From the NCBI RefSeq assembly GCF_026571515.1, contig NW_026857081.1, positions 1 through 64,000 on the forward strand: DNA of 64,000 nucleotides. The letters run 5' to 3'. The stretch comes from Ruditapes philippinarum (Eukaryota). A program made the position numbers and the translations under genes. Shown in pieces: positions 5,440-47,140 of this stretch. Position 1 is the stretch's first letter, and every line of letters begins with the position of its first letter. The notes below the pieces were generated by a model. It did not search any database. It was not told where the DNA came from and saw nothing but the letters and a program-made list of their open reading frames with translations.

Positions 5440-6187
5440 ACATGAACAAACTTATTAATGAATACCATCTTAATTAAACAATATGTTGACATAATTATGG
5501 TCGACGAAGTCTATTTATAAAATAGATTTTGATAATGCATTTGATGAACACTTTGTTGATAAGTTTAGTGCAGAATTACTCTATCTCAATTGAACATCAA
5601 TTTCGCATCATACATATTGTACTTTATCTACTGATCTATACACGAAGAAAATGCAACGTGGACTCTAGATTGTATTATGTATAAACATTAAAATGGTAAA
5701 GTGGACTTTGTATTGTATTATGTATAAACATCAAACGAGAGTTTCAAGTATCTTATCTATATGTAGTAATATCTACATTTGCTCATTCCGTTGGACAATT
5801 GTTTGATGCTATAAAATGGTTTCTTTGTTTTGTAAATTAAAGTATTTAACATGCCTTACTCTTTCCTATACATTTTAATACTCAACTTGTTTTGGAATTT
5901 AATAACGAATATTTTCATGGAAGTTTATTTGACATATCGCATGTGCCGGGAAATGATACGATATTTCATTTTTACTAAACAAATAGCATTGCACGTGCTT
6001 TTTATTCACTGCTTTGTTTACCAAATATTAAATTTAGAATGTTTGTAGTCTGATAATGAATTCAAAGTGTTTTGTTATGTTTATCAACACCGTCAAATTT
6101 TGTAGATACTAGTTCTTTACTATGCGTTTCAAGTTGCGAGGGTCAATGTGTCTTAAATAAAGGTTGTTTATAAGACTGTAGTGTACA
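5440..6187 (+). pseudogene. Truncated copy (A) of the 5' end of EGF-repeat receptor gene B
   Basis: Aligns with ~13555-14305 (MIRYFIFTKQIALHVLFIH...). It has TAG at 6046-6048, an internal deletion near 6075, and ends at the repeat gtgattaatgcttccga. Confidence 0.85.
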
Positions 6188-7024
6188 GCATGTATTTTTG
6201 TTGTGATTAATGCTTCCGATGGATCACTTTGTTTCCAGATTTATTTTTTTGTAACTGAATATAACTACAGTTTGTATTTGTATTGCTTGCAACAATCTTC
6301 TGATGAATTACTGATGCCAACATTTGTTATTTTCCGCATCTTTTTGTGTTGGACGGCTGCAGATATAACTATTTTAAACTGCTAAAATTGATAACTCCTG
6401 ATCAGTACACCAACACTGGAGAACGATAGGATATCGATGTATAATTCATAATCAACAGTTTGCTGTTGACCTGATTGCTTATCTAACATATATTCCAGGA
6501 AAACATCCTTCGGAACAAACATTATTCGTTAGTTAAATAAATTTTATATAATAAATGATTAAGGTTGCTATATATGTACCATTGTGAATACCATTCCGTA
6601 TTTCGAGGGAAATGAATAATACGTTATCAAATGACCAGTTAGTGTTATAGAAACAATATAAATATATAATCAGTTCAATGAAAACAAACGCTTTCTTTAG
6701 CTCTCGACGGTTGGTTAGTCATCTTCAGAAGAAATTTACGTTTATAAAATGACAATTGACGCAACGTCCTTTTACCTACACCGCTAAAAGGAACGAAATA
6801 TAATCGAAAACTTTGTCTAATAAATACAGAATCTTTCATACATAATGCTGCAATATACAATAATTTATACGTAGAATATAAATTGGCACAAGTGAAAAAC
6901 GAAATTCTAATAATAGAAAATAATAAAAAAATACTTGATAAGATTTTTTTTGTTTGTTTAGGCTTTACATCACATCGACACAGTATAGGTCATAAAAAAG
7001 AATGTAAACGTTAAATAGTAGAAC

Positions 7025-7462
7025 AACAAGAGCTGTCGGTAGGACAGCAACGCTCGACTATTCTTAGTGCTTGATAGTAAAAAAAAATGCTTGATACAGT
7101 TACCTCCTCCTGTTTACAGGTTGGGGTAATGATGGTGAACAAGTGTGCAAAGTTTCAAAGCCATATGTCAATGAACTTTGAAAATATTTGAGGTATTACA
7201 AAAACTTTAACATAAATTATAAGTCGAAAAAGGGGCATAATTCTGTCAAAATGCTTGATAGAGTTACCTCCTCCTGTCTACAAGTTGGGGTCATGATGGT
7301 AAACAAGTGTGCAAAGTTTCAAAGCCATATGTCAATGGACTTTGAAAATGTTTGAACTATTACAAAAACTTTAACATAAGTGGTTACGCCGAAGCAGACG
7401 CCGACACTGACGCTCGGGTGACTGCAATAGCTCTACTTCTTCTTATCGAATAGTCGAGCTAA
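7025..7462. mobile_element. HINE-like non-autonomous element
   Basis: Ends aacaagagctgtc...gctcgacta and tagtcgagct (subterminal inverted repeat), internal tandem units and a GACGCC-type microsatellite. Same family as 11381 and 48385. Confidence 0.7.
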
Positions 7463-7527
7463 AAATGTCTATAAATAAATTAATAATGGACAAAAAGAAG
7501 AAGAAAAGAAATGAAATTAAATGTTAC

Positions 7528-11196
<3,669 letters not shown>

Positions 11197-11380
11197 TCAT
11201 ATTGTTATGGATATTAAGTGTTCAATAATTGTATTTGTGGGCTAAAACGTCAAACTTTTGTTGAATTTCTTTTTACTTGCCTAAGAAAAACCTTGAACTC
11301 ATTCCTGGACACTAGTGGCTAAAATAATATGCCTATCAAACCATTACTGACATAGTCTTACCTCTATATACAAGCAGTCA

Positions 11381-12358
11381 AACAAGAGCTGTCCGTAAGA
11401 CAGCGCGCTCGACTTTTTTATTGCTTGCCAATAAAAAAAGTTTTTGCAGTAAAAGGCAATACAAGAATCTCTGTATTTTTAAAGTGAACAATGGCCATGA
11501 GCATTAAGATATTTAGTGACGAATTATTTTATTATGACATAATTTATGGTAAAGTGAACAAGTGGATAGGAATGAATTTTTTTAGATTTTTTAAGTTTTT
11601 TAGTGCTTGCCTATAATACAAAACATTGACAGTTAAGGGCCATAATTCAAATAAAATCTTTGACAGAATTACCTTCATCCTGGACATGTTTGGGAATCAT
11701 GATTGTAAACAAGTATTCCAACTTTCAAATTAATATCTCAAACAGTTCAGTCAAAAGTGGACTGGTACTAAAAACTTAACCAAGATTCTAAGTCGATAAA
11801 AGGCCTTAATTTTTAAAAACAAATCCTTGACAGAGTTACCTTCTCTTGCGTACAGATGGGGGTAATGATGTGAAATAGCATTAAAAGTTTCAAAGCAATA
11901 TCTCAAAGGGTTAAGGCAATAAGTGGATTTTACCCATATTCAATGTATTTTCTAAGTCAAAAAGGGGCATAATTCTGTCAAAAACCTTGACAGAGTTATG
12001 TCCTCTTGTCTGTTGATGAAGGTCGTGATGGTAAACAAGTATGGTCAGTTTCAAAGCAATACCTCCAATGGTTTTGAAATAAAGTGAGGTGGTACAAAAA
12101 ACTTAACCAAGCTCAATACACTTTCTAAGTCAAAAAAGGGCCATAATTCTGTCAAAAACCTTGACAGAGTTATGTACTCTTGTCTGTAGATGGAGGTTAT
12201 GATGGTGAACAAGTATGGTAAGTTTCAAAGCCATACTTGTAATACTTCTGAAATAAAGTGGGGTGGTACGAAAAACTTAACCAAGGTGTGACGCCAACGC
12301 CGACGCCGACGCCGGGGCGAGTAGGATAGCTCCCCTTTTCATAGAAAAGTCGAGCTAA
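11381..12358. mobile_element. HINE-like non-autonomous element
   Basis: aacaagagctgtccgtaagacagcgcgctcgact...gacgccgacgcc...aagtcgagct. The part from 11600 to 12357 is almost identical to 48420-49190. Confidence 0.8.
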
Positions 12359-13177
12359 TAATAATTTATTTTCGTAGCAATAGTAAATACAATAGACCTG
12401 TTAAAATAGTCTGTAAAACAGTTATGACACGTTTACATTCTTTTTCCCGATTCTATACTTGAAATAATCATAAATGATGGGCAAAGTAAACTTAATAATG
12501 GTGCGTCACGGCAACTGAACAAAATGTATCACAACATTTAATATAGGTAGGTTCTTTTTATGAAGTAGTTTGCTTGTTATGACTTTTGTCAAACTATTAC
12601 CAGAAAATCAAGTTTAAATATGTTTATAACATGATTACTGTTTTTCAAAACTGGTTAAGAGTATTTTTGAGACAAGTCTAATTTGATTAATCGTATTACT
12701 AGTCCTCAGACAGTTTTGAATACCTGCTACAAGGCTCTGGTGCCAAACTAGTCATGTGATAAACGTATGTAATAAATAATATTTTAGTTTTGTTCATTAC
12801 TATAAGGAAACATTCTTCGCCTTCACGATGAGTCAGTAAATTATTATTACTACAATGATTTGTATGCATGTCAGTGAACGCACAATTGTTTAATTATTGA
12901 GTCAATTTTTACATTTCCTTCTTCACTTTCAGCCTTGTAAAGCAAATGATTCAATTATTGTAAGTGCATAAGTACGTGGTCATATGAACTGTTTTATTTC
13001 AAATTTCCTTGTTTTAGTCATGTAACGTATTGCAAATGATACATGCATGTGTTGACTATAAAAGGAAAGCTACACCGCATAATTTGCACCGAACGTATTG
13101 TAATGATTCAGGCAGAGGAAACAGGTCACTTTATCAATAATGCGCGTGCTATTATTAAAACTATGTTTGTCAATGAC

Positions 13178-13390: not shown

Positions 13391-14012
13391 TATGTTTGTC
13401 AAAAGATTGAACAATTCTGTTTTAAACTGCAGAAACAGCTGTTTAGTGTTTTGCAATGCCTGTAAAGATAAGAGCGATCGCTATTACAATCTGCCTTGTT
13501 TTAGAGGTTACCATTCTATAAATTTTAAATCAAAAATAACATTTTGAAAGCATCCTTATAATGAATAACATCATCATTAAACAATTTGTATATATATGGA
13601 CGACGGAGTCTATTCATAAAAATATTTTGTCACAATGTCTTTGATGACCACTTCGTTGATGAGCAAAGTGCAAAATCACTATATCTCAACTATACATTTA
13701 TTTTGCGTCATACATATTATTCTTTATCCACTGATTTTAAGTTCATTTTATACACGAAGAAAAGGCAAAGTAGACTGTATATTGTATTACGTATAATCAT
13801 TAAATGGGAAGGTTTTAAGTATCTTGTCTTCACATTTACTCGTTCCTTTGGACAATTGTTTGATGTGATAAAACGTTTTCTTTGTTTTGTAAACTCATTC
13901 AATTTTAAACATGCCTTTCACTTTAGGACTATTTTAAAACCCGACATGTGTTTTGGAATTTAATAACGAATATTTCATAGAACTTTATTTGATATATCGC
14001 ATGTGCCGGAAA

Positions 14013-17000
14013 ATGATACGATATTTCATTTTTACTAAACAAATTGCATTGCACGTGCTTTTTATTCACTGGTGTGTTTACCAAATATTAAATTTAGAAT
14101 GTTTGCAGTGTGATAATGAATTCAAAGTGATTTGTAGACAACCTTGTCCATCTTATTGTAGACAATGTTCATCGGACGATTTATGTCTGACATGTTTATC
14201 AACACCGTCAAATTTTGTAGATACTAGTTCTTTTCTATGCGTTTCAAGTTGCGAGGGTCAATGTGTCTTAAATAAAGGTTGTTTAAAAGACTGTAGTGTA
14301 CTGCGCGTGATCAACACATATCGTCCTGTTCTTTGTGTAACAAATGACACTTGCCTTAACTGCTTGAAATTAACTGGAAAGTGTTTGCAATGTGATGCCG
14401 GAAGATATGGCAATCTTTGTCAAAAAAGATGTGGATATTGTCAAAGAGATTTAAAAGGACTCGTTAAATGTAACACAAATACTGGCAACTGCAGGAGTGA
14501 CTGCGAAAATGGATATTTTGGTGAACGTTGCGATAAACCATGCAAAAATTGTATTTCAGTTACAAAGTCAAAACAATGTGAAAAAATAACTGGAGAATGT
14601 ATTTCTGGTTGTTTACCAGGCTGGTTTTATAAGACATGTAATGAAACGTGTAGCAGCATGTGTCTTCATAGGACATGTCATCAAATAAGTGGATACTGTG
14701 TTGAGGGTTGTATAACTGGTTGGTATGGTAACAAATGTGAAAAGCATTGTAATGATAATTGCAAAAGGAGCTGCGATCAAATAAGCGGAAACTGTTCTGA
14801 GGGTTGTATAACTGGTTGGTATGGAAACAAATGTGAAAAGGATTGTAATGATAATTGTAAAAATAGATATTGTGACAATTTAAACGGATATTGTACATAT
14901 GGTTGTAGTCAAGGATGGTTTGGCGAAACATGTGAAAGCGTATGCTCTGACAAATGTTTGCACAATTCCTGTCACAGTTCAGCGGCATGCAAATACGGTT
15001 GTTTGCCAGGGTGGTTTGGCAATACATGCGAAACAAGTTGTAATATTGCTTGCTACAATAGATCATGTGATCAGACAACTGGAGTATGTGAATTCGGTTG
15101 TATAAATGGATTCAATGGTCCGAAATGCAGTGAAATTGACCATGTTTTTACTAACGACAGCATTTCACTAGATGGACACAAGAGAGAGGATAAAACAGGT
15201 AAGTATTACTTCATTACAATATTTCATCGCTTTGAAAACGTTATTCAGTTAGGATATGCTTTAGTTAATATGACTTTTGCAATATTTCAGAAAAAGGGTG
15301 TTTGTTTGTTTCTTACAGTTGATGACTATGACATTAAACCAATAGTATATGGCATTTTCGGGAGTATATCTGGGATGTTTGTCACAGGACTGGGTTGTAT
15401 AATGATTCTGTTAATAAGAAAGTAAGTTAACTATTCTTAATAAGAAAGTTTATTTATAACATATCTATGAAATAAGGGATTTTTTAGTTAATGTTATTCA
15501 TTTTATTAATCAATCTAATTTAGAATTCAATTTTACGTAACACTGTCGCCATTGTTAATTAAATATAGTTCATTCACCTATTCTCCAGAATTTCATTTCC
15601 ATATATGCATGCAAATTATATTAATTTGAACATCATGGCTTTAATCTTACGAGATATACAGCAAATACTGCAACTGATAAAGTTATGATTTATTCTTATT
15701 GTCAGAGCCATTACAAGATTCCGATGGTATGACTATCTTAACAACTCTTTACAGGGAAATGTTTCACCAATATATGATGAGATTTTACAAACCAATGGTA
15801 AGATTTCGATATAACTGTCATAGAAATAAATAGATAATGATATGTTTACAATTTTTAAGATGTTTATAAATTTTGTGTACTAAGTGTACATGTATACTGT
15901 TTTATCCAAAGGGTACACGAATTTTAATAAGTGTGTGCTATAAATAGTATAAAATGAAAGCAATGCGTGATGGAAGCTATCGTGTTTTTGATACAGCTTA
16001 AGGTTATAATTTATGCAAAATTCATAAAGTTTCAATGTGTAAAAAGCCATAAGCTTAAAGACATACTATGGAATCAGTTCCTGGAGCATATCAGTTATGA
16101 GAAATGGGTGTAAAGTAACAACGGCTTGCTCAATGGACTAGATATTTAAGATTACCAGACCGGCTCATTAACCAATCGGCCATGACGCCTCGTTTATTCC
16201 TAGTGGTTGTTACTAGAGTTATGGAAATGACGTATATAATTTTATTCATAGTTGACTTCAGGAAAGTCTCAATACTATACTGATTTTTAAATCAATTTAT
16301 TAAATAGATATAGCATTAGCGTTCCCTATAAGTAGATATATCGTTATTGCATGTCTTTGGCAATACATCTGCTGTTGCTAGTTTCCTAGTGACACAGAAT
16401 TCTGTTTTTATTTAATTTCTTTGAAAAAGAGGGGGTATATATTGTTTTGCTAATGTCGACCGGTCCATCCGTCGGTAGACCACATGGTATCCGCTAATTA
16501 TCTTAAAAACTATCTATCACAAAGTTTTCATATTTTAAACACGGATAAATCATAGCTAGTAGATAACCCCTATTGATTTTAGCTTAAAGGTCAATGTCAC
16601 AGGGGTCTTAAATGTCAGAATGGTTTCCGCTCATTATCTTGAAAACTATTTATTACAAAGTCGTCATATTTCAAATATTGATATGTCATAACTAGTAGAT
16701 GATTTTAAGGTCACTAGGTCAAAGACACGGGTACCTTAAATGTCAGAATGGTTTCCGCTTATTATATTAAAAACTTTTAATCAAAAATCTACATATTTCA
16801 CATATTGGTTGGTCATATGTAGTAGATGACAAATATTGATTTTGGGGTCACTAGCTTAAGGTTTAAGGTCACAGGGGCCCTAAATATCAGAATAGTTTCC
16901 TCTGATTTTTTTAAAAACTATTTATAACCAAGTCTTTATATTTCACCCATTGATTGGCCATATGTAGTAGATGATCCCTATTGATTTTGGGATCATTATT

Positions 17001-18637
17001 TTAAAGGTTAACGTCACATGGGCCTTAAATGTCAGAATTGTCTCTGCTGATTATCTTTAAAAAATCATAAAAGTCTTCATATTTTACATATTGATTATTC
17101 ATATGAAGTAGATCACCCCTATTAATTTTAGGGTCACTTGTTCAAAGGTCAAGGTCACAGGTGCCTTAAATGTCAGAATTGTTTCCGCTCATTATCTTGA
17201 AAACTATTCACGACAAACGCTTCATATTTTACATATTGATTGGTCATATAATGAAGATGATTCCTATTGATTTTAGGGTCACTAGTGCCAATGTCAAGGT
17301 CACAGGGGTCTTAAATATCAGAATGGTTTCTGCTCACTATCTTGAAAACTATTTATCAAAATGTCTTCATTTTTCACATATTGATTATAGTCATATGTAG
17401 AGGATATTTATAACCCTTATTTATTTTGGGGTCACTAGATTAAAATTCAAGGTCACAGGTGCCGTAAATGTCAGAATGGTTTCCGCTCATAATCTTGGAC
17501 GCAATCACAAAGTCTTCATATTGCACATAATGATTGATCATAGCTAGTAGATGTCCCCTATAGATATTCAGATCACTTTGTTAAAGGTCAAAATGTCTTC
17601 ATATTTCACATATTGATTGGTCAAATGTATAGAATGACAATTATATATTTTGGGGTCACTAGATTAAAGTTCAAGGTCACAGGTGCCATAAATGTCATTA
17701 TGGTTTCCGCTCATTATCTTGGAAGAAATTTATCACAAAGTCTTCCTATTTTACATATTGATTGGTCATAAATAGAAGATATCCCCTATAGACATTCGGA
17801 TCACTAGGTAAAAAGGTCAAGGTCAAAGGGGCCTTAAATGTCAGAATAGTTTCCGCTCATTTTCTTGAAGACTATTTATCACAAATTCTCCATATTCAAA
17901 TATTGAATAGTCATTTGTAGTAAATGACCATGATAATGATTTTTGGGTCATTTCAAAGATCACAGCGGCATTAAATGTAAGAATGATTTTTGTTTTACTG
18001 TGAAAACTTTTTATCACACTGTTTTTATATTTCACATTTTGATAAGTCATAATGGCGTCACTAGTTCAAAGGTCAAGGTTTTTTTTCACATATTGATTGG
18101 TTATAACTAGTAGGTCATTATTTTTCTTTACACTTCCATGTACCCATTTATGGCAAGTTTTTATAACAAAATGTCCAATACTATGAGTCAGGGCGAGAAA
18201 GCAGGGGGGGGGGGCATATGACATATTGTGTCGTTTAACATTTCTTGTTAATCATTTCATACTGTTGAACCACTAGTAAAATTATGTTACTATTTAGAAT
18301 GTAAGTATTTATTTCTACTGGCAATACAGAATTGAATACAAATGACGAGACAACACCAGGTGGGAATATAGAATTTACGGAGTCTCACGAGTTTCACTAT
18401 ACTGGCGGTGAAACATCTATCAATCTTCGAAATAAAGCTAGCGTCTGTGATCAAAGAGCTTTACAGATAAGCCAGGGCGAAGAACTAGAAAGAGAAAGAA
18501 CGAACAGTTTTGTCGAAACAACGGGTATTTACAGAACACATCTTAGCGATAATTCTGACTATGAACAAATACAGCTGCAACCAGATTTTTGTGAAGAAAG
18601 AAATGAAAGCGTTTACTACTTACACCCTATTAATTGA
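14013..18637 (+). CDS. EGF-repeat single-pass receptor B (MEGF10/CED-1/SREC-like); exons 14013-15198, 15319-15421, 15706-15797, 18330-18637
   Basis: Hydrophobic N-terminus and repeated CxxGW[YF]GxxCxxxCxxxCxxxxCxxxxGxC units in one exon. TM exon IVYGIFGSISGMFVTGLGCIMILLI, then an exon with SPIYDEI and a last exon with SDYEQI and YYLHPIN*. Intron phases 1,2,1 are consistent. Confidence 0.85.
16425..18250. repeat. HINE-like element with ~140-bp tandem units in intron 3 of gene B
   Basis: Repeated ggtcactag...aaggtcacaggggccttaaatgtcagaatggtttccgctcattatc, with gtcc-type motifs at the left end. Confidence 0.8.
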
Positions 18638-20307: not shown

Positions 20308-21248
20308 ATGATACTAAAATATTTGATTTGTATTTATGTATTTTATGGAATAAATGCTGACAATGATATGTTTAAGGATAGGGTAGATATATTAGAACGA
20401 CAAATGGTCGAAATGAGAGAAAATTCTGAACGTACAGAAGCTGAATTTCGAGCAGAAATAAAGGAATTGCACAAGAAGATTAGGAAAGGACAAGAAAAAA
20501 TCGATGAAATGGCGGTAACCCACCAGGAAGAACTAGCAACACTTCGACAATCACTCGGAAATTGCTTGGAAATATCAAGTTAGTCATGCTTTAACATATT
20601 TGGTAGAATCTAATTATATATCAAACGCGTAAGGACATAACTAACATTTTAGTCAAGTATGTGTAATACTGGATATAGCTATATTATTGAATTTTTCAGT
20701 GAGTCAAGGAATATTTTTTCAGTCATAGTAGTAGGGACTTGTTCTTACAGTAATTTTACAATTGCCTGTCAGAAACGTTCAAGAAAAGAAATGGAGAGAT
20801 TGACCCTTCGGCGACCGAAGTTGCATTCTTTGCAAAATTAGGACAGGAAACCAACCACCTCGGAATCGAGCAAACAATCATCTTTGACGATGATGTTACC
20901 AATATTGATTCGACAAATTCACCTACGGCCTACAACAGACATACTGGTGTGTTCACCGCGCCTGTCATCGGTTTATATGTTTTTTCAACAACAGTCCTGT
21001 CATCGTACCAGTCCACGAGCCATTTTAGGTTTTATTTAAACCATACACCGTTAACAATTATGTAGGTACATGGCAACAATAGTAGTGGCTGGGATTCTGC
21101 CAGTCAGACCATTGTTTTAAATTTGAAACGCGGCGATGTCGTATCTGTGAAGAATACTGAGAACGACACAGGAGTGCTCGGTGGTGGTCATTCCATATTC
21201 TCCGGATTTTTGCTGCGTGAACATGATGAAGATGTTATTGTTGGCTGA
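20308..21248 (+). pseudogene. Secreted coiled-coil + C1q-domain (C1qDC) gene with an in-frame TAG; exons 20308-20578 and 20773-21248
   Basis: Signal peptide and coiled coil, then VAFFAKL...IIFD..VTNI...YNRHTGVFTAPVIGLYVFS...SASQTIVLNLKRGDVVSV...SIFSGFLL (gC1q signature). TAG at 21063-21065; AATAAA near 21312. Confidence 0.85.
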
Positions 21249-22084: not shown

Positions 22085-22900
22085 ATTGGCAATATAGTAT
22101 AGAATGCCAATATCGGAGCAACGACGTGTCAGCACATAGAATAATCACTAACTTACAAAGTTACATACACGGACGACAATACATATATCAATTTAAGGCA
22201 AAAATTTGATATCGATGATTAAAATGGAAAAAAATAAGGCATTGCAGACGAAAAGAGCGAGTAGTAATTCAGACACTACAACTGAGAACAAAGGTGGTAA
22301 AAGAGACAATCATGATTTTTAAGAAACAATATAACAACTACATATTTACGTAGATGAAAACAATAAGAGTTTATTACTGACACAGGATCAATAAAGTTTC
22401 TGCATACAACCTATTTTTTTTTTCAAAAAGGATACGATGTTATACCAGTTTTGTCTTAGTTTTATTTTTGTTTCGAAACGTTAAAAAGGATTTTTACATT
22501 TTACGCATTAGATCCTATTGATAAAAGTGATTCTTGCAATATGAGAATGACTATTAGAAAACATGTAATTAGATAATGACTGTCACTATATATTTTTGGA
22601 AATATACAAATGGTCAAAATTCACATTTAGTTGTTTTTTAATTAGTTTGTACGAACAATACCTGATTCTGATAACAATAATAACAATACTTTCTGGACGC
22701 CGGTTCTTTGTTGTTGTATATGTTAAATAATATAGGTCGTTTTATGCTTTCCATTTGCATATTTGTTGTATTATTAATACATATTTAAAATATCTGTTCT
22801 ACATGAATTACGAATTAAAGTTACGTAAACTAAACATTAATTTCCAGTTTGATTGTTGCAGTTCTTCGTATTTGAAGCTTTTACTAAGATATCACATTTC
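22085..22900 (+). pseudogene. Orphan degenerate last exon and 3' flank of another EGF-receptor paralog
   Basis: Aligns with 28600-29500 (acgacgtgtcagcaca...tatcaatttaaggcaa...cagacactacaactga...tttctgcatacaaccta). It contains stops. Confidence 0.7.
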
Positions 22901-27180: not shown

Positions 27181-28884
27181 ATGACGAAACTGTTCAATTA
27201 TATCAAACAATTGTTTCTACACAAGCTTTTTATATACTGTTGTGTTTACCAGATTACGTATTTACAATGTTTTCAATGTGATAAAGAATTTGAAGTAGTT
27301 TGTAGTCATGTGTGTCCTTATCATTGTAGAAAATGTTCGACTGACGATATGTGCTTAACATGTTTATCAGCACATTCAAATTTTACGGATTCTGTTTCGT
27401 TTATATGTTCATCAATTTGCAAGAATTTGTGCATTTTAAATAGAACTTGTTTGAAAGGATGTGATGTGATGCGCGATATAAATCCACATCGTCCTGTTCT
27501 TTGCGCGGTCAAGGAAACATGCTTACAGTGTTTAGAATTGTCAGGGAAGTGTTTGCAATGTAATCCCGGAAGATACGGCAGTCTTTGTGAAAAGAGTTGT
27601 GGACATTGTCAAAGAAATTCTGAAGGACCCGTTGAATGTGATAAAATCAGTGGCAAATGCATCAGTGAATGTGAAGATGAATATTTTGGTCGACGATGTA
27701 ATAAAAAGTGCACGCACTGTGTGTCCGCTTCGCAGCAGCGAAACAGGTGTGAAAAACTAACAGGAAAATGTGTTAACGGCTGTTCGCAAGGCTGGTTTTA
27801 TGAAACATGTAATGAAACATGTAGTAAGATGTGTCTCCACGGAACATGCAATCATAGAAACGGATATTGTGATGTTGGATGTGTAACTGGTTGGTACGGA
27901 AACAAATGCGAAAAAATTTGTAATAAAAACTGTATTCAAGGGTCTTGTGATCAATTTAACGGATATTGTACTAATGGTTGTCTCCCAGGCTGGTTTGGTA
28001 ACAAATGCGAACTGAGTTGCAGCGATGTTTGCCTCAATAATTCATGTGACCAAAATTCTGGAATATGCAAAGAAGGAGAACTTAGTGATTAATGCTTCCG
28101 AGGGATCACTTTGTTTCCAGAATTTAGAACTTTCATGAAAAAAAAAGATTTTTTTTATATAACTTCTCTATTTCTTTATGTATCTACCTCAAACTTCATA
28201 CATACCTCTATTCGAGTTTTCATGTAATTCAATAAAGTAATTTGGTTTTTAGAGGATATTATCAATTATCTGAGAAAATTGGATCTTTCATTATCTGTTG
28301 TATAAACGTAATTTTCTTACTAGGGGAGGCAAACTAAACACATTACTAAGATATAGACAAACTAAAAACTAAAAAGATTTAAGTTCAGTTATGTCATTCA
28401 TTCATTCAATGGCATAATTCAATGACCAATGGCCCTTCAGAATGTTGATGGGGTTCTAACCGGTAGGGGACTTATGGATTGCTTGCAATGCTATGATATT
28501 TGTTTGTTGTACTTGATATTATTTGGACTTTAGTTAAACAGCATATAAGTATTCATATGTAACATTTTCTTTTGCTTCTAAAGATAATGTAGAAGCAAAT
28601 ACCAATAACGGAACAACGACATGTCAGCACATGGAACCAACACTAACTTACAATGTTACAAACACTGGCAATAAGACATCTATCAATTTAAGGCAAGAAC
28701 TAATCTTGATCAAAGAGAAATACAAATTAGGCACTGCGGTCATATCAAAGAAACAGAGCGAGTGAATTGTACGTCAGACACTTCAACTGACAATCATTAT
28801 TATGAAGAAATAAAAGAACGGTCATATATTTGTATAGATGATGACAATGAAATAGTATATTATTATTTACACCCTATCAATTAA
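27181..28884 (+). pseudogene. EGF-repeat receptor C: ectodomain exon truncated at ~28085, TM and IYDEI exons absent, frameshifted last exon 28584-28884
   Basis: The 303-aa ORF is collinear with gene B and stops inside the repeat gtgattaatgcttccgagg. The downstream exon encodes ..TSINLR/(shift)..HYYEEI..IVYYYLHPIN*. Confidence 0.8.
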
Positions 28885-31378: not shown

Positions 31379-34300
31379 TTAATTCACTGCGTGTAGATAA
31401 AGCACGTCGTCATGATGTTTATTTGTTACTAATTCTTCACTTTGATCGGTTGAAGCGTCTAAAGTAGATTCCATGTGATATTCGTTTTCGCTGTCCTTTG
31501 ATGATGAATATTTAGATTGTTTTAATGAGTATTGACCTACATTTTCTACATCGTCATCGCTGTTTCCGGCCAATTTATTATCTTCCCCATCCTTTGATCC
31601 ACATGAAGTGTCAGAGTTTAGGCGTGACGTTGAGACTCTGGTTTCATAAGTTCTCAGGCTAAGATAAGAATTTTCTCTCGCAAGTCCTTGCTTTGTGGTA
31701 TTGTATTCCGCGTATGCATCACTATATACCGTGACATCAAATGGTAGCATGACTAAACTTTCTTCAGATCTGTCTTTCGCTTGTGTTTCTTCTTGAATTC
31801 CTCCTAATAAATGCGAGGAGGGGCCTCCAAATTTTGTAGCACACGTTGGTTGAGAGTCAGTATCTATCATAAAAAATAACACTATAAAATGTGTCAGCTG
31901 ATCGAACACTGAATTTCCATTACATAATAAACATTATTCCTTAAAGCTACATTACATAAATATGTAAAAATATTTTTGCCATCGGCCTAAAAACCAAGCA
32001 TTCTACAGTTTCATTAACCTTTTTAACAATATCGTTATAAATTTCATCAAATACTGTTCATAAATTAGGATTTTAAATGGAAAACCCCACGTTAACACTT
32101 AAAGTCGTATACGAATTTTAACATGCAAATGAAGACAATAATCAGCTCGTGTATGCGCTACGTCACGGTGTTATAGTTGCTATCCATCGATCCGGAACAC
32201 AGAAAATATAAGATTTTCTTGTGCAAACACAATTTAACCGTTCAAGTTTCACGGTGCACTAGGCCTAGGGTTCAGTAAAAATAATCATCTTATAAAAAAG
32301 ATGAAATTTTTATTTAAATATCCGTTACAATGCGGAAATATACCGTTAAATAAGGACTGCTAGTTATAGTCATGTTTGTTGATTTAACATTGATGTACGG
32401 ATGATCTGAAGGCGGAGTTTCTCATGCAAACAAAATTTTGTACTTCCGAATTCGCCACAATGAGGTTGCACATTTGTATGCTCATAAAACTCATTTTGGT
32501 TGTCTGGAAACCAAAATAAGACCTGGAGTCGATATGAAATGTCGCTATTTCTGTTTTTATGAAATTTATTAAATGTAACTTTAAGTTATTAAATAAAAAT
32601 GATAAAAGTAAAACTCTTGGTATTTTTCCTTCTGATCTGGCTATATTACTTTCATACGTGTAAGTGACTTCTATACACATTAGCACGAATGTATTCTTGT
32701 GTTTTACTTAATTTCAAAATCAAGACAGAGCTTCATTTGGCACAGGTAACTTTCAGTTCCATTTTTTGGAACACATAAATGGAGAAATGAGACTACAGAT
32801 CACAATGTGAAGTAAGACTTAAATTCGGTGCACTTTGAAACAATCATAACGATTGCCGTTATTGTTAAGAATTTTAAAATATAATATTACATTTCGTTAA
32901 GCTCTTAACTCTTAGTATAAATCCATTTCTAAATTGCACGGGTGGTGTGTTTTTTCGATTTTCGTACCATTATATATTTCCTTGCTATATTTACACATAT
33001 ATGATAAAAATGAATAAATATTAAGCTTCATCATAAGATAATAAATGTAATAATTCAATACCATTTAAATCTTTAATTTCATCATAAATTGATTCTTCTC
33101 TAGTGTTTTTCTTCATTTCCGACAAGACAATCTCCCTACCGATGTTTTCGTTTCTGTACACAACAACCCTACAATTACAATTTATATTTATAAATATACT
33201 TCTGCTCTTACAAAAATATCAATTATTATAAAGATAGAAATAGCAGAAAAAAACAAAAATTGTATTGGGCTGTTTTTCAGTGTGTGTGGGGGGAGGGGGG
33301 GTTAGAAAAAGTGCCAAAAAAGAAAATCTCAATATTTTATACCTTGCTTTCAATGAAATATTTTATTTCTGGTAAAATAATAGAATATTTATTTGAACCG
33401 TAACAATTTTCGAAAATTTCAACAGACAATTTGCCAAAATAATAGCAAATTAACAAAATCAAGTAAAATGATTTCTGCGATTAATTATCGTGGAACAACT
33501 TACCTCCAGATTGTGTAATATCTTACCTATGACGGACGATTAGAATACAAAGGAAACATAACAGTATAGAAAACACGCTTAATAGACAAATCACCATAAT
33601 ATTGTCCATAGAAAATATGATCGTTGTGGAAACTAAAAAAAGATAAACAACAGCTTATGTAATGATATGTATATAGGTACAAGTTTCTGTCTTCATTATA
33701 ATTTTTAATAGCATAAATTATGTCAAGTTTAATGGAAAAAGTATAATAATTCAATAAAGTAAAACCTCGTTCAAATCGTTTGTATTTGTATTTCAATAAT
33801 TTCACCTTGTGCATTATAAAGTTTGGTCAATTTACTAAGCATGAATAATTAATGTACAATATTAATCAAGGATTGTATATACATGTAATTCTTACTTTCA
33901 TAACTTTTCGTGACACCGTTTCCAAACCGCGAATCACATGAAAGACAGGCGGTTGTGTAGTTTTCACATGAAGCTTCTAAGCGTGTTTCACTACAGTTCC
34001 CCTCGCAGTTTTCACCATAGTACCCTTCAATGCAGCCTCTGTCACAAACTCCAGCCATCTGTTCACAAGATATATTAAAACAAGTTCTACTACATGATGT
34101 GTTGCATAACTGGCCAAACCAACCAGCAACGCAGCCGAACAGGCACTTACCACTACTTTGATCACATGTTTTCTTCTCGCATGTGTTACTACATGTTTTA
34201 TTACAAAATATACCGTATTTACCTGGTACACATCCATTTACACAATGCTGTGTAGTTTGCTCGCACGTGCGATTTAAGCACGTGCTGTTACAAATATTAT

Positions 34301-35186
34301 TACAACTGTTCCCGAACCAGCCATTTAAACATCCATTTTTACAGTGCCCTGATATTTGATGACATGTGTTGCCAATGCAAGTCGTGCTACATACCCTCTT
34401 ACAATTGTTTCCATACCGACCAGGAATACAACCCTTTAAACAAAGTCCGGTTTTCTGGTCACATGCTTTGTTAGCACACGTTTCACTACATTTGCTTTCA
34501 CATGTATCTCCATACCAGCCTGGCATGCAGTCATTGCAGGTTCCGGAGCTTTGGTTGCAATAATTATTTAAACATGTTTTGCTGCAGATGCTTTGGCATT
34601 TTTCATTATATCTACCAGCTACACATCCAAATATACACTTTCCAGAATGTCTTTCACATTTTCTACTATTTGAATGCGAATTAAAACAATATTGACTACA
34701 CTTCTTATCGCAACGGTTGCCGTAAAATCCATCTAAACAATCACCTTGACAATGCCCGGTGACAATATTACACGTTACGATTTCATCTTCATTAGGACGG
34801 CAATTTCCGCACTTTTTGTCACAGTGAGTTAAGTTACCGTACAAATTATTTGTGCACTTCTCGCATTGGCCTCCCGAAATTTGAACACATTCCGCGCAAA
34901 CACGAAATGGGGGACAGTAGATACAACAGTTATTGCCCTCTTTGCCTCTGTAACATCCTCTTAAATTTGTTCCATTAGAAATAAACAACATATCACAACC
35001 AACTTTACATATTGACCTACACGTGCTATTCGAGAGCTCGTTCTCACATTCTAAGCACGAATAAAGTAAAGAGCATTTTGCACACCGTTCTGGACACAGA
35101 TGAAAGTCGACCGTTCCAAAATAAATGTCATTACAAATGTAGCATGATACCAATGGTAAACATAAAAGAAGTTTTACACCCGCCAT
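31379..35186 (-). CDS. EGF-repeat single-pass receptor D; exons 35186-33896, 33632-33527, 33153-33062, 31863-31379
   Basis: Signal MAGVKLLLCLPLVSC, EGF array in one exon, TM IMVICLLSVFSILLCFLCILIV, ESIYDEI exon, and last exon with SYLSL, GQYSL and LYLHAVN*. Phases 1,2,1. Confidence 0.88.
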
Positions 35187-38100
35187 AATCCGAAATAGAT
35201 TGTAGTTCAAGAATCAACTGTCATACTTCTGATGAAAAAATACCTCTGCAAAATGACGTTTCATATTATTTTCAAAATCAAAAGATATACAAAACATTAT
35301 ACAATGTCGTCGTTGTAAAATCATCGATACTTCTTAGATTAAAATTCTTTTTATTCTTTTATACTGAAAATAAAAGCAGATTTGACTGAAATTTAGAGAT
35401 CTATGTCCTAAACATAAGATTTTTCATGCAAATTCCTAGTAGAAAAGTACCTGCCAGATTACGTGGTTTGTTAAGATATAAATGTGTCTTACAGATCTCA
35501 TAAATATAAAATTCAGCATATACATGTGTGATTTCATGGTAAGTGTATATAACGTATTTAATCAAAGAAAAGATTACTAACCTTTTCAAAATAGTTAAAA
35601 TCTGGAAAAAAGTGTGATCCCTCAGGTACATTAATCACAACAAAATTACATGAAAACTGCTGACTCGGTTTTATTGGGTCTGTCTTTTCAAAACAATAAC
35701 TCAATAGAATCACTTAAAACATGTTTTTTATGTACATAATAGTACAGTTTTATACTAACGAACAATAAAGGTAAGTATGATGTTGTAGCTTTTCTACAAT
35801 CAAGATCAAAGTTCAGTATTAAAACTAAATGAATCGTGACATTTGCTATGCTTTACATAGTCTGATATCCCGCATCATACAAATACGGACTTTAAGATGG
35901 TGACATTGTTTAATATGAACTGAAAAGAAAACACTCTGAGAGTGACATTTTAAATCAATATATAGACTTACTCTAAAGGATTATATGTCATATCAAATAA
36001 TGTGCTTTGTGAAGGCATATTTAAGTTTTAACCTTTCGACAGCATTGTTTGGTTGTATATCGTAGTTTCTAGATTCAAAAGATGTACATGTATTTTTTAA
36101 AATATTTTACTATGTACATCGTCAACTTTGACGGTTCAATTAACATGTTATGAGAGATATTTTCTGTTACATAATGGCATAAGTTGAATCATTTACAAAT
36201 CTCAAAAATGTATGTTATCTTTTGTTTTGATTTTCAGTTCTTTATCATCTCAGTCCGAATAGACAGAGACCAGGAACGAGAAACGTGTAATGAAATAATG
36301 GACCTTTTCTGTTTAAGCACCCGCTTTAATAGCTAAATCAATTGCTCACAAATAGTGTTACAGTCAATAAGTGAACATTTATAACACAAGTGAGGCAAGT
36401 GAATCGCTAATCAGTCAATAAACATAACAATGCATATAAACACTGGAAATGTCCATTCTTTATCATACATGTATTTATATAAGGCGTTTCCATTATTTTA
36501 TAATCTATTATGAAAGTATGTAATTAATATATATAGTTATACGACAATTCCTCCATCACAGCAAAGCTATTCAAAAAGTGTGTTTTACGTCTGTACGAAG
36601 GCAGTAAAAGGACACCTTTTGACATGCAAGATTTGTTTCTAAAAGTCTTGTGTTACCGTTCTTTTACTCACTCGTAAGGAACATTTGGCGCCATTCAACA
36701 TTGATTTTGTCACATGCTTATCTGAATCCTTGTGAGAATCAGCATATAAAAAACGCGATGATTAAACCTTAAAACTCTGCATGTTTCTTGAAATATTGTT
36801 ATTTATTTACAATACCTGTGACGAAAGCGACAATTCTTCGAAGGGGAATGTTAAATATCGCTACTTATCTTGCGTTCGACTATTTTCAGTGCTTGGTAGT
36901 AAAACTAGGTCCTGGATAATATAGCATTTTTATAACATCGAAAAGGTCCATAGTTTGTCAAAATCCACATTAAAGTGAGGGTCTTGGATAGTGACCTCGT
37001 ATTATTTTCACAAATAAGAGTGTAAAGTTTCAACCTATTCCCATTACCAACAAAGTAAATACTTAACCCAAGTGTGACCCTTAAACCGCCACGTGGGTGA
37101 GTACAATAGTTCTACCATTTTTTCTAACAGTCGAGCTAAAGCTCAATCTTAACAGGCGACATTTTATATGACTCAAACAGGACACCTTAGAAGCGGACGG
37201 AAAGTTGTAGCGAACCAGATAGCGCAACTCAGGATTAAATTCAGTTAATCGGTAAAGAATTAAATAAATTGAATGGCCGTTTCCAGGAACGACGTAGCTT
37301 ATTATTTTAGCATTGATTGGTTTTTGATTTGTTTATTGTTGATGTTGTTTTTGACGACACTAACAGTTGTCCGTTGAAAAATACAGAAACTCTATCTTTT
37401 CTTGTTTATTGTCGAACATTCTATCAGAAAAAAACAACAACAAAACAATAACATGACATTCACTGTCCCTTTACTACTACTACTACAACAGCAACAAAAT
37501 AATAAAAAAATCAATGACCATTGCGTTAAAAATACGAATAAGGAAAATAACCTTATTTCCGTTCCAAAAGTTATCCATATTACATTGACACAATACATGT
37601 TAAGTGTCTGTTTCAATGTTGAACGACAAAATATGACTCTCTAGATACTGGAGGCAGCCATTATAACATTGATAATGAATGAAAGTGAATTCTGTCCGAT
37701 TAAAATAAGTGCACTAGAATTCCATGCAAATACAATTTGTCTACACATTGCACTGCCTAAGCTTATAGGCCATGTAAATATTTTCAATAGTTTTATATTT
37801 TCAAATGGACATACTTTATTTTCCAGTAGATAACGTCAGATACACTTACTCCTATTTTCTTTTAAAGCGTCTTCTAACAGACAGTTCGCCAGGATAAACA
37901 ACAAATTGTCCCAGGCGAAGTCGAGGATAAATTTTTGTTTGTCCTAATGAATTCCTACTGTACTGTACCATTACAAAATTTAACACTTCCAGTTATGGTA
38001 TATATGCAGTTGAAGACGATAATGTTTACATTATTCAGTCATATCATGATATAATTGGTTGTGCAGGTTATTCAGTTATTATATTATGCATTTTTATTGC

Positions 38101-40559: not shown

Positions 40560-40810
40560 ATTGTTGACAGATACGGAAGTGGGTCACTTATGCTGAGGGA
40601 AGACATGTGGTAAATAGAGGTACATTGACTGGTCATGCCGGGATATTGAGCGATCAATTCATTTAAATAGGCAATCATGGGCGCGACAACAAGGCTCGGC
40701 TGGTCTAGCACTACCTGCAGAGGAAGTGTGCAACCTATCTCATGGGGGCATGAGAAGGCGTATCAAAACATTTGTCTTTAGCAATGAGTCACACACCTGC
40801 TTCTGAGACT
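40560..40810 (+). mobile_element. Highly degraded Tc1/mariner transposase remnant
   Basis: Conceptual fragments RYGSG.., DNKAR and MRRRIKTFVFSNESHTCF* resemble the Tc1 GGGSVMVWG, DNAR and C-terminal MxxR..A.GGHT.Y motifs. Confidence 0.4.
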
Positions 40811-42605: not shown

Positions 42606-45600
42606 ATGGATCTGAGATGGCTTATACTTATCACGTTACAATATGTGAAATTAGACGATGCAGGTAACACAAAATTGAATATCTTTTTCTACTTTGTCAT
42701 TGACTAGTGCTATGATATAAAATCAGTGAAATATGAAAATGTTGAAGGTTGTCCAATGTGAGTGAAGTGCCTTCAATACATAGACACTAGCATTGTTATT
42801 TAACCAAATTTTGGGTTAATCTAATCTTTATAATTGCTGTGCAAATTACAATATATACGTGTATCAACCTCATGTAGTTTATTTTCCTAACACATGGATT
42901 TTCTGAGATACATCTACACAATCATCAATCAATACAACTATGTCGATGTAAAATAATAATATGGGTCATTTGTGCACGAATGTGTCTTCACAATAAGCAT
43001 GTCTTAATGATATTATCATTTTATAATGTACATTTTTTTCTAAACTACTTGTATTGTAAAAAACTGCAAAAATGATTCTTTTCGCTTTGACTGAGCCTGT
43101 TCATGTACGGCAGTGTAAATTCAATCTTCCAAGCGTTCCTAGCACCGGTTTAATCAAAATTTAACATTTATTATATTGTGCAGTTACAAGAATTAAAACT
43201 AAAACATGTTTTATTCACGATGTAACTCTTTTCCTTTGAATTTTCATTATTACTAAACACTGTCGTTGTGTATTTAAACCAAAACCATTGTCGTTTATTT
43301 ACAGCTTTTAAACATTTTATTCTAAATGTTAATCCTTAATGGTTGTTGACATTTTAATTAATAGGTGATTGTCCCATTGAGCACTGCAGACACTGTACAA
43401 CTCCTAAAGAATGCTCTGTATGCACGTTGGGCTGGTTTGGAGAACAATGTGAGCACAAATGCAATTACAATGATTCTACGTGTTCAATATGCAGTGATTC
43501 ATATCTCAGAAAAAGTTTCAAAAAGTTTGACAAAGATTTTTGCTTTGGATGTTCAAAAACTGAGTATATTTTAAACGGTACCTGTAAACAATGTCCACAA
43601 AACTGTGACTCATGTATTGATTTGATTAATTGTACTAAGTGTAAGACAGGATACTTTGGATCGTCATGTCAGAATGAATGCCCTGTTAATTGTGAAAGCT
43701 GTAAATCTCCTGATTTGTGTACCTCTTGCAAAAATGAATGGCAGGGTAGTTCTTGTCAATGCAGTCCAAACTGTTTAAAAGAGGGAAATTCGTCTGAATG
43801 GTGCAATGAGAATGGGACGTGTACGAAAGGTTGTATCAAAGGGAAAAGAGGAAGCATGTGTAACTTAGATTGTCTAGAGAGTGATTCATGTATTGAATGT
43901 GATCAGTATACTTATCGATGCCTAAAGTGTTCAAATGGGTGGTATGGGACAATTTATTGCAATAAAACATGTGGACATTGTTTTCCTGACAGTAAAGGAG
44001 ATATTGTCTGCAATATTGATGGAGGAACATGCAACAATGGATGTGCTGACGGATATTTTGGTCAAACTTGTAATGATAAGTGCGAAAATTGTCTGGCTCA
44101 TACGCAAGACGTCGTGGTGAAGTGTAACAGTACAAGTGAAAAATGTAACACATCTTGTTTTAATGGTTTCTTTGGTAAAGACTGTGAAAAAGAATGCAGC
44201 CCAAGCTGTTTTGATCCAATAGCAAACACAAGCAAGTGTGACAAAGAGAGTGGCCAATGTATATATGGTTGTATCCCTGGTGTGTATGGTGAGAGATGCG
44301 ATATGAATTGTAGCGTATATTGGTCTAATACTACTTGCAATCAAAGTACGGGCCAGTGTATGAACGGGTGTATTAAAGGATGGTATGGCTTGAACTGCAC
44401 ACTTGCTTGTAGCGATACTTGTCTCAATCAGTCGTGTAATATATCGTCGGGGTATTGTGATGTCGGGTGTGAATCTGGTTGGTTTGGGGATAGTTGTCAA
44501 GACGCGTGCAGCATGAAGTGTGCTAACAGATCGTGCTCAAGAGAATCTGGATTGTGTGATAATGAATGTTTAGATAGTATTAATGGTACAAACTGTTTAA
44601 GAAGCTGTATTGGAAAATGCAAAGACAACTCGTGTGACAGACATACATCGTGGTGTATACTCGGTTGCGAGACTGGATACGAGGGGCTCTTTTGTAATGA
44701 AAGTAAGATGAAAAATATAAACATATAAATAATACCTCATAAAATATAAATGACAACGCACATTATTCGAAGCATACTTTTTATATTAAAATAGTAAACG
44801 TATCCACCCAAAAGGGGTGTCCGTTATTGTTGATAACTTTTAAACACTTGCACCTTACCGCTTTAGATTCCAATCACACTCGGGACTTTGGGTTTGTTCA
44901 TGTGAGTAAACTGTCCAGATAGCTTATAGAACGTCGTTGGTTCTACTCTGGTGCGCACTCGTGCCGGAAACAATTCACAGAGGGGCACCTGATGTCTTCC
45001 TCCATCAGTAAAGCTGAAAATTCGTCATATTACCTACCTCTACAACCCAGCAACAGCAAGAAGTATCCATCCGATATTACCTGGTATCACATGATCAAAA
45101 ATGTTTATGCCCACAACTTTTTGTTATACATTTTCAACAGTCATTTATATATTAAACAAACGTTATTACACTCATGAAGTTTTTCTTTCCAATTTATCGG
45201 CATTGTACCTTTTAAGATACATACACACATATTAAACATAATTATATGCACTCCTATCATTGTTTTTAATAATTTTGACTTTAATTATAAGTTACTACCT
45301 TTTTTATAATTTAAGCAATGCAGACCGATTTTGGTTCAATGGTTATAGTTACAAACGCTGGTATCGCTGGGGCTTTAATAGTGTTCTCGATTTTCTTTGT
45401 AGTGTCCGTCGCCATACGGTAAGAAAAAGCGCATGATTTATATTCAACCACAATCTAAAATATGTTATTTTCTATTAGATTTTCTGGAATCATTTTCTCT
45501 TCTATCGTTAAGGTGAGCTCTTGTTTTAAACTAAACGAGGAAGCGGCGTACAAGGGACTAAATATGTGATTTATGTTTGAAATTAGAACTTTTTGTTATA

Positions 45601-47140
45601 CAGAGGATATTTATGTTTTTTTCTATAAATACAGTGTTTATTTTCATCGAGTGATATGAAAATAAATATTTAATGAGTGGCGGTAGCCACAAGTGAAATA
45701 TGATAATTTTCATAGCACAAGATGAACATAAATCCTGTATTTATAGGAGAAAACTTGAATTTTCTATCTATTATATACAATTTTCACCTTTGTGACATCA
45801 CAGTTTGAAAGACTTTCCCTTAAAGTTTGTATATTGGCCGAATTTAGCAGAAAGTAGTCTGACAAGACACCAGTGAAAATACGGAAAATATGTTTCATTA
45901 CAGTGAAAATACAGAAAATATGCTTCACTGCAGTGAAAAAACGGAAAATGAAGAATACGCATTTTATTTTATCAATATTTCTCAATATTTCACTTATAAG
46001 TATATGATAAAAAAAGAATATTGTACATTCACAGAATCGGTAATATGTTCAATTCGTTCTTATAATTACCACCTGCATTTTAACCACCGTACTTTTATAC
46101 ACGTGGCTCTTACTTCTTATTTCAGATATGCGGTGTGTCCACGACGAAGGAGAAATATAAACAATTCCACAAAAGAAAATGTTGAATCAATTTATGACGA
46201 AATTTGTGAGAATACAGATGGTACGATAAAAGTTACTTAATGCATTGTATATGTTTGACTGGATGTATTTTGAATTTATAATTCCAATCAAAATTGTTCG
46301 AATATCTGTTTCCTCTTTAGACCCAGTTCTATGATTGCATTCTGCATTTCTTATTCTGTGTAATATTTATTTTGTGTCCTTTCAGAGATGGCCATACTTA
46401 CAAATTGTATGAATGAAGATGTTGATTTGGATATAATGGTTGATTCTCGACTCGATAATGCAAGCTTTTCTAGATGCAATACAAGCAGAGGTGACCATTA
46501 TGGTAAATTGATTGACACAGGAACTCAGAACAATGAGTATACGGACCTGACATATTTAACAGTCATGAATTCAAGAACTCCCATACCACAACTTCCTCCA
46601 AGAACTGCGGTATCAAACGCACCAAATGACGTTATGGATGAAGATGTTAATTTGGATATAATGGTTGATTCTCGACTCGATAATGCAAGCTTTTCTAGAT
46701 GCAATACAAGCAGAGGTGACCATTATGGTAAATTGATTGACACAGGAACTCAGAACAATGAGTATACGGACCTGACATATTTAACAGTCATGAACTCAAG
46801 AACTCCCCTACCACAACTTCCTCCAAGAACTGCGGTATCAAACGCACCAAATGACGTTATGGAAGGTCTCTTAAAAAATTGTGGCAGTATCCGTCCAATG
46901 GATTTGAATGATATCCCTCGTGCACTATACGGCTTTAAAAATTCTATCAGTGAACAGATAGATACCCAGGAATGTAATTATATTGACATGAATATGTCTA
47001 AAACCGATGGAGATTTTTTGACAAGGTCAATGGAGATGTGTATTGGAAAACAGCAAGATTGGAAGCAAAATCGTCCTGATTTAAAACTTTCATCTAGCAA
47101 CGAGAGTGACCAAAATGATTATTTACACCCAATCTGCTAG
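42606..47140 (+). CDS. EGF/furin-like-repeat single-pass receptor E; exons 42606-42663, 43365-44702, 45316-45418, 46126-46220, 46386-47140
   Basis: Signal exon MDLRWLILITLQYVKLDDA, 1.34-kb Cys-rich exon, TM AGIAGALIVFSIFFVVSVAI, ESIYDEI exon, and a long tail ending NDYLHPIC*. All introns are GT-AG with consistent phases. Confidence 0.88.
44812..45040 (+). mobile_element. Degenerate tRNA-derived SINE in an intron of gene E
   Basis: gggactttggg..gtgagtaaactgtccagatagcttatagaacgtcgttggttctactc matches the SINE at 51258-51465. Confidence 0.65.
46409..46858 (+). repeat. In-frame 2 x 225-bp tandem duplication in the tail of receptor E
   Basis: Units start at 46409 and 46634 and encode nearly identical 75-aa copies. 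Confidence 0.95.

Follow-up and report, generated by a model that had tools for sequence, protein, structure and literature searches.

Receptors of the CED-1/Draper/MEGF10 group are defined by an EMI domain and an NPxY motif, and Draper occurs in splice forms with either an ITAM (immunoreceptor tyrosine-based activation motif) or an ITIM (its inhibitory counterpart) (PMC8092387). Tyrosines Y934 and Y949 of Draper are needed for binding of the Shark tandem SH2 domains (10.1101/198986). The ITAM consensus has a spacing of 6-12, and in the oyster the receptor CgIgR, a single characterised gene with an immunoglobulin (Ig) ectodomain, recruits Syk through an ITAM of spacing 9 and promotes phagocytosis in haemocytes (PMC6994640). 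Here we describe a cluster of EGF-repeat receptor genes in 64,000 nucleotides of the clam Ruditapes philippinarum (contig NW_026857081.1, positions 1 to 64,000; the window), with three genes intact (B, D, E) and three broken (A, C and the 22-kb exon). We read the products of B, D and E as single-pass receptors that form a venerid branch of a large molluscan superfamily of EGF-repeat receptors. Like Draper, they would likely signal through phosphorylated tail tyrosines to a kinase with tandem SH2 domains (Syk or Shark); judging from sequence, we give this reading a probability of about 0.55. Like CgIgR they would be bivalve membrane receptors with an ITAM, whereas CgIgR has an Ig rather than an EGF ectodomain, a spacing of 9 and a single gene.

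All six pieces reported in the initial annotation are found where it placed them, with B, D and E intact and the others as remnants (Table 1). The window contains four long cysteine-rich open reading frames (ORFs) and scattered tail exons, and joining exons at AG/GT sites yields stop-free ORFs encoding type I membrane proteins of 566 (B, plus strand), 662 (D, minus strand) and 782 (E, plus strand) amino acids. The ectodomain of each is a run of six-cysteine repeats of ~33 residues encoded in one exon, and no catalytic domain is present in any of the three. From the EGF exon onward the intron phases are 1-2-1, IYDEI lies 4-5 codons upstream of the end of the short exon, and the proteins terminate in YLHPIN (B), YLHAVN (D) and YLHPIC (E). 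The order of EGF, transmembrane, IYDEI and YLH exons proposed earlier describes B, D and E, with some amendments: the 22-kb exon lacks YLHP, C has no transmembrane or IYDEI exon downstream of its EGF exon, and E has a predicted fifth exon upstream. This additional exon, which would encode the signal peptide of E, was placed because it matches the start of the Mercenaria mercenaria protein P0003.

Our model of B is identical, letter for letter, to RefSeq XP_060594290 (R. philippinarum 'MEGF10' isoform X1). In a second RefSeq isoform, of 476 amino acids, the last intron is spliced to an acceptor at 18298, 32 bases further upstream, and the protein stops after 12 further residues, so that IYDEI is kept and the remaining tail, including YLHP, is dropped. 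Within the giant exon of B, one EGF repeat has been duplicated over 96 bp (14680-14862, 91% identity), a recent event by which repeat number changes inside the exon.

Paired tyrosines in the receptor tails

Motifs were counted in 12 full-length or near-full family proteins and compared with 57 non-catalytic tails from outside the family. A juxtamembrane tyrosine motif, IYDEI or a variant, is present in all 12, and Y[LI]H[PA]x1-3 forms the C terminus of 10, including six of the eight from Mercenaria, as against 0/57 outside tails. The tail motifs thus recur in further paralogues, as the reading in the initial annotation required, and also in Mercenaria. What the initial annotation overlooked is that, in six of the 12 proteins (B, C9403 from another contig of the same genome, and four from Mercenaria), IYDEI completes an ITAM-like pair of the form YxxL/V-x11-12-YxxI. 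The distance between the two tyrosines is 15 residues (16 in one protein), the same 15-residue spacing as Draper Y934/Y949, and in B and C9403 both lie on one short exon. The tyrosines and the L/V/I positions are kept while the intervening residues vary. In shuffled tails the pair occurred in 0.78 proteins on average and none of 2000 shuffles reached six, a test in which the proteins counted are relatives of one another.

Counting any ITAM-like pair, as a sequence pattern, gives 7/12. The additional type is seen in E, in which the last exon carries YGKL-x9-YTDL twice (46499-46549 and 46724-46774), doubled by a 225-bp tandem duplication (46408-46863, 98%); a pair of this YxxL-x9-YxxL type is also found in Mercenaria P0003, just as the B-type pair is found in Mercenaria. 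The first juxtamembrane tyrosine is missing in D, E and the further clam gene C1545. Tails of 11 of the 12 proteins contain 4-19 tyrosines, and NPxY is absent from all 12, in line with the earlier remark that the tails of B, D and E lack it. Outside the family, ITAM-like pairs occur in 23 of the 57 tails (shuffle mean 2.0, maximum 7 over 500 shuffles), a count that includes one kinase that passed the filter and three pairs that are near-duplicates, and that permits V at +3.

At the DNA level, a loose pattern for the terminal motif matched the genome 65 times against 55 in the control, so most of its matches are genome-wide background; four of the 65 fall in the window, where 0.003 would be expected, so their occurrence there is not a chance cluster. 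IYDEI followed by a splice donor gave 26 matches against 26 in the control and nonetheless led to C1545 and its relative C10934. Motif patterns alone were rejected as a count of family members, since matches and controls are about equal.

Because of the ITAM-like pairs, SH2-type signalling appears more plausible than the initial annotation had argued. The ectodomain may cluster on a microbial, dying-cell or matrix ligand, upon which both the acidic I-Y-D/E-E-I site and the tyrosine paired with it would be phosphorylated by a Src-family kinase. Binding of Syk or Shark could then drive engulfment or cell activation, and the terminal YxxP site might dock a single-SH2 adaptor of the Crk/Abl type. 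YxxP is the known specificity of Crk/Abl-type SH2 domains, and ITIMs and YxxPhi sorting signals likewise have established consensus patterns.

Several observations weigh against this model. The sequence YDEI matches the YxxPhi pattern of sorting signals as well. No ITAM-like pair is present in D or in four of the Mercenaria proteins, and D, with its single tyrosine motifs, is yet intact and conserved. The acidic residue that precedes the first tyrosine in the classical ITAM consensus is missing from most pairs, and the pattern admitted V at +3. In the ectodomain trees described below, support for the whole family including B was 97 (quick tree), 86.4/61, 43.9 and 0.756, and an unfinished search left B outside. 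Moreover, no protein record was found for D among the 10 matches listed or for E among the 31 listed, so both may be unannotated.

The fit to YxxPhi raises the alternative that the proteins are endocytic scavenger or adhesion receptors like SCARF1 and SCARF2, with YDEI read by clathrin adaptors independently of phosphorylation and the tails serving mainly as trafficking modules. SCARF1 is the closest solved structure to the ectodomain (PDB 8hna, E 2.7e-4), a weak similarity, and TM values in the Atlas structure comparison lie below 0.35. SCARF1 (SREC-I) and SCARF2 share with the clam proteins a type I topology, short EGF-like repeats of a similar kind and the absence of NPxY. YDEI lies ~25 residues from the membrane and, with its variants, is the best-kept motif of the tails (12/12), and D is devoid of any pair. 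A sorting signal, however, requires no second tyrosine at a set spacing, whereas pairs are kept in 7/12 family proteins and exceed shuffles about tenfold outside the family; the many tail tyrosines likewise speak against it. According to a review (PMC6968791), SCARF1 has neither NPxY nor tyrosine-based sorting motifs, whereas the clam tails keep several tyrosine motifs and belong to many paralogues. We consider this alternative unlikely, though of some weight.

The absence of the first tyrosine from D, E and C1545 could instead reflect a paired set of receptors, in which ITAM members (B, C9403) activate, S/T-I-Y-D-E-I members (D, E, C1545) recruit SHP-type phosphatases, and the short isoform of B tunes the output. 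The SIYDEI of both D and E conforms to the ITIM consensus, LTYLTV occurs twice in E, and the two RefSeq isoforms of B differ in the tail. Draper provides a precedent with its ITAM and ITIM splice forms (PMC8092387). In the Mercenaria relatives of D, however, the corresponding site is PFYEEI or PIYEEI, which is not an ITIM, P0013 combines SIYDEI with an ITAM pair, and ITAM-like pairs occur in E itself. A pattern as short as the ITIM readily arises by chance, and the ectodomains of the supposed pairs are only 36-40% identical. A division of labour of this kind is improbable.

Relatives, age and the wider molluscan superfamily

With CED-1, Draper and MEGF10 the clam receptors share a type I topology, an EGF-like ectodomain, a non-catalytic tyrosine-rich tail and alternative splicing of that tail. 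They differ in lacking EMI, NPxY and EGF_PEAR1L, in having 33-residue repeats of six cysteines in one exon, and in forming a multigene family that turns over and has a conserved C-terminal Y[LI]H[PA]. In Pfam, neither EMI (PF07546) nor EGF_PEAR1L (PF23301) matched the exons of B, D and E or the full-length relatives; the only matches were EGF domains below cutoff and one sub-cutoff laminin-EGF domain in E. Genome searches for EMI and EGF_PEAR1L were also null, as were their controls, and are uninformative. The automatic names in RefSeq, the Draper-like spacing of the ITAM and Atlas feature scores of 0.83-0.87 to MEGF10/11 and draper clusters would place the proteins as divergent members of the CED-1/Draper/MEGF10/11 orthogroup. 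Against this, EGF_PEAR1L is found in 88-100% of the members of the draper/MEGF Atlas clusters, and these clusters rank below three molluscan ones, all of the nearest clusters being molluscan. Since EMI and NPxY are absent, the clam receptors are not CED-1/MEGF10 orthologues by those features, and we regard membership of that orthogroup as very improbable. The initial proposal of a distinct subfamily concealed by automatic annotation is supported; the names in use are MEGF10-, MEGF11-, MEGF6-, draper- and SCARF-like.

Further members were found in the same genome and in Mercenaria. C9403 has the full exon plan and both motifs (RefSeq P0044), C1545 has IYDEI with a different C terminus, and its relative C10934 is broken. 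C13805 is a copy of B (84% identical) in which a frameshift and a stop have arisen and IYDEI reads IYDEN; it shares the upstream flank of A. Eight Mercenaria proteins belong to the family; their records list the same 104-Mb longest contig and form two runs of close accession numbers, labels that suggest that the genes are clustered. Among the relatives examined, YDEI and terminal YLHP occur together only in the venerids Ruditapes and Mercenaria.

Family genes fell together in four of five ectodomain trees; C was left out of the later ones, as its fragment covers a different part of the ectodomain. D forms a clade with Mercenaria P0012 and P0081 (support 99.5/100), and E groups with C9403 and C1545 (97/94). 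Since each also groups with Mercenaria genes, the D and E-group lineages predate the Ruditapes-Mercenaria split, and for the same reason the extent to which B, D and E have diverged (ectodomain identity 36-40%) is mostly a matter of age. The YDEI/YLHP family is, on sequence grounds, real and old within venerids, and apparently undescribed: the open literature searched, supplements aside, gave no account of it or of ITAMs in molluscan EGF receptors, and the main texts of PMC8905726 and PMC8382680 do not mention EGF or MEGF.

The exon plan, which the initial annotation took as a family mark, proved to be genome-wide. We surveyed 48 other regions, drawn from searches that scored 150 of 325 and 150 of 468 candidates. 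A giant cysteine-rich exon is present in 46 of them, joined to different tails, and 34 of these 46 exons are followed by a membrane exon of phase 1 to 2 (automatic search; two doubtful). Only C9403 among the 48 has both motifs, and other subfamilies have tyrosine endings of their own. A profile search recovered 3505 representatives with a related ectodomain at E<=0.001; by crude patterns, at least 29 of the best 150 matches carry a phosphatase and 5 a kinase, about a fifth together. Molluscan genes annotated as MEGF10-like, SCARF-like or draper-like, including EGF-kinase and EGF-protein tyrosine phosphatase fusions, thus share the ectodomain superfamily, at many loci the same exon plan, and commonly ITAM-like tails, whereas YDEI with terminal YLHP is confined to the Ruditapes/Mercenaria subfamily.

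In bivalve disease transcriptomes that compare tolerant with sensitive animals, the name 'MEGF10-like' implies orthology to Draper/MEGF10. Transcripts of the 'MEGF10 family' differ between disease-tolerant oyster families (PMC9892467), and disease studies of oysters and hard clams record responses of MEGF10-family transcripts or of MEGF6 (PMC9892467, PMC4769524), although these transcripts cannot be assigned to the YDEI/YLHP subfamily; a survey of Aplysia reported only two MEGF10 orthologues (PMC9334734). Our results suggest that the parts by which Draper is defined are missing from many such genes, which form a separate expanded superfamily with tails strongly enriched in ITAM-like pairs. This offers a testable entry into the question of the receptors that act upstream of Syk/Shark and make recognition diverse in the haemocytes of molluscs, and the cluster provides tail peptides of B, E and D, a natural tail-less isoform and cross-species orthologues. 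A broader and tentative idea is that molluscs hold an unrecognised immunoreceptor superfamily, with dozens of genes per clam genome, in which one phase-1 EGF exon is combined with interchangeable tails (ITAM, ITIM-like, tyrosine kinase, tyrosine phosphatase). Its members might work in activating/inhibitory pairs for recognition, much as KIR/LILR/Siglec families do in vertebrates but with EGF-based ectodomains; the YDEI/YLHP cluster would be one old branch of this superfamily, in venerids, and C an example of its structurally variable alleles.

Other loci of the superfamily were noted in passing. Larger and younger giant-exon clusters lie on G000:C10729, C13110, C13075, C10051, C1284 and C8781 (L115-L154), with at least nine genes on C10729; their tails end YDT...NNDYDF or carry VTYEDL, and they are better candidates for recent diversification than the window. 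The giant EGF exon at G000:C15752:160993 (P0016) sits on the contig of a receptor tyrosine kinase, to which it is assigned and whose sole annotation is MEGF6. A tandem array of a dozen cysteine-rich exons of 190-330 residues at G000:C3596:25107-50800 is probably one very long receptor built of repeated exon cassettes. L142 (G000:C1293), a giant-exon gene of 916 residues that is not a family member, contains YIHPI internally and DYEEIM at its C terminus, the same motifs reshuffled.

Selection, polymorphism and expression

Diversifying selection, proposed in the initial annotation, finds no backing in the ectodomains, where the pairwise ratio of nonsynonymous to synonymous substitution (dN/dS) is 0.35 for B against C13805 (head 0.17, repeats 0.36) and 0.25 for B against C. 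For A against B the ratio is ~1 on 10 changes, as expected for a dead copy, and in the signal and short exons of B against C13805 it is ~2, on 5 and 8 changes. Recent duplicates and pseudogenes (A, C, the 22-kb exon, C13805, C10934, and the near-identical Mercenaria pairs P0012/P0040 and P0002/P0003) stand beside old paralogues that have been kept, so the birth-and-death pattern claimed for the cluster holds. It would seem that the main lineages are old and under purifying selection, while the copies around them (A, C, the 22-kb exon, C13805) turn over, local duplication and truncation at repeats being the means of their birth and death.

The cluster had also been considered a candidate allorecognition or highly polymorphic locus. 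The allorecognition genes fuhc of Botryllus and Alr of Hydractinia are Ig-based and extremely polymorphic, with ITAM/ITIM in Hydractinia genes and EGF domains in fuhc-sec, alleles of which are ~25 residues apart (PMC12065747). The clam genes resemble them in clustering, in ITAM/ITIM-like motifs and in EGF domains, and differ in that no such polymorphism was seen in D. In two other DNA-like runs, exon 1 of D differs at 11/1611 and 14/1495 bases (0.7% and 0.9%), at most ~14 base changes, which is within or below the range of the non-coding contigs listed (~0.2-1.4% in one run, 0.9-4.7% in the other); this comparison covers D alone and the longest contigs, and alleles less than 88% alike would be missed. 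C, D and E are covered in both runs. On the other side stand the pseudogenes and divergent copies, the elevated dN/dS of the signal and short exons, and a contig of run X9 over C (27152-28070) that is 4.6% different and then continues for ~590 bases unlike the reference past 28070. This contig hints that C is structurally variable and is possibly an allele of C without the truncating repeat. With the low ectodomain dN/dS and the similarity of D between runs, an allorecognition locus under diversifying selection is highly improbable, and on present evidence the cluster is not a bivalve histocompatibility locus. The ITAM-like signalling signature, which appears common to a much larger molluscan superfamily, is the stronger result.

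Two raw RNA runs, of which 4-6% was read, gave ~0-2x depth on the exons of D and E and no listed splice joints, too low a depth to judge expression. In the DNA-like runs E is at ~2x the baseline in X2 and the last exon of D is nearly uncovered in X9; neither was used as evidence of copy number.

Remnants, repeats and neighbouring genes

The break points of A and C coincide exactly with two of six copies of a short dispersed repeat in the cluster (6196-6266, 21296-21480, 23625-23735, 28085-28125, 30451-30612 and 35597-35683). A 780-bp direct repeat of 97.8% identity flanks the genes from B to E (11596-12361 and 48417-49193) and could mediate loss of the intervening 36 kb.

Table 1. Features of the receptor cluster, in window coordinates
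Feature	Position	Strand	Description	Basis
A remnant	5451..6195	+	5' flank and opening ~100 codons of an EGF exon like that of B; 2 stops, 55-nt deletion; broken at 6196 by short dispersed repeat	
Poly(A) polymerase partial duplicate	7332..11380	-	between A and B, not a family member; other copy at G000:C14747:82558-87581	
B exon 1	14001..15198	+	signal peptide, Cys-rich head, some eight EGF-like repeats (6 Cys, ~33 aa each); phase 1 at its end	
B transmembrane exon	15319..15421	+	phase 1 to 2	
B short exon	15706..15797	+	ITAM-like pair YDYL-x11-YDEI at 15728-15784 (Y442, Y457)	
B last exon	18330..18637	+	ends YLHPIN-stop; alternative acceptor 18298	
C1q-domain gene	20340..21248	+	between B and the 22-kb exon, not a family member; in-frame TAG near 21063; coiled-coil-like exon; start approximate	
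22-kb exon	22098..22400	+	decayed copy of the last exon of C, YLHP lost	
C EGF exon	27181..28092	+	303 aa, 57% identical to B; broken at 28085 by the same short repeat as A	
C last exon	28584..28884	+	frameshifted; ends YLHPIN-stop	
D last exon	31379..31863	-	ends YLHAVN-stop	
D short exon	33062..33168	-	SIYDEI, no partner tyrosine upstream	
D transmembrane exon	33527..33632	-		
D exon 1	33896..35186	-	signal peptide, head, about ten 6-Cys repeats	
E signal-peptide exon	42606..42663	+	phase 1, predicted	homology to start of Mercenaria P0003
E giant Cys-rich/EGF exon	43365..44702	+	phase 1 to 1	
E transmembrane exon	45316..45418	+		
E short exon	46126..46220	+	SIYDEI	
E last exon	46386..47140	+	ends YLHPIC-stop; contains 225-bp tandem duplication	

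The poly(A) polymerase piece is a 4-kb internal part of the gene with 77-95% identity to the other copy and one end at a repeat, and it looks like a partial duplicate. We also considered that B to E had been inserted into an intron of this gene between the two 780-bp repeats, but the second copy has no unique match past 11380 over the 30 kb compared, and the idea was dropped. The C1q-domain gene lies inside the cluster and, like the poly(A) polymerase piece, had escaped the initial annotation; C1q is a ligand of mammalian MEGF10 (PMC8092387).

Towards the ends of the window are elements of other kinds. Several broken ORFs occupy 700-4750, none with a Pfam match; for one of them (700-1533, minus strand) the scores to clusters of viral and double-jelly-roll capsids are 0.96-0.97, at a low recognition value, and we take the region to be a probable endogenous Polinton/adintovirus-like element. 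Downstream of the cluster, a 2.6-kb tandem duplication of 92.5% identity (49463-54586) is followed by homopolymer-rich stretches (~54400-56200) resembling consensus error. Exons of an S1-domain gene, presumably eIF2-alpha, adjoin the cluster at 60385-61281 on the plus strand and are a possible synteny anchor.

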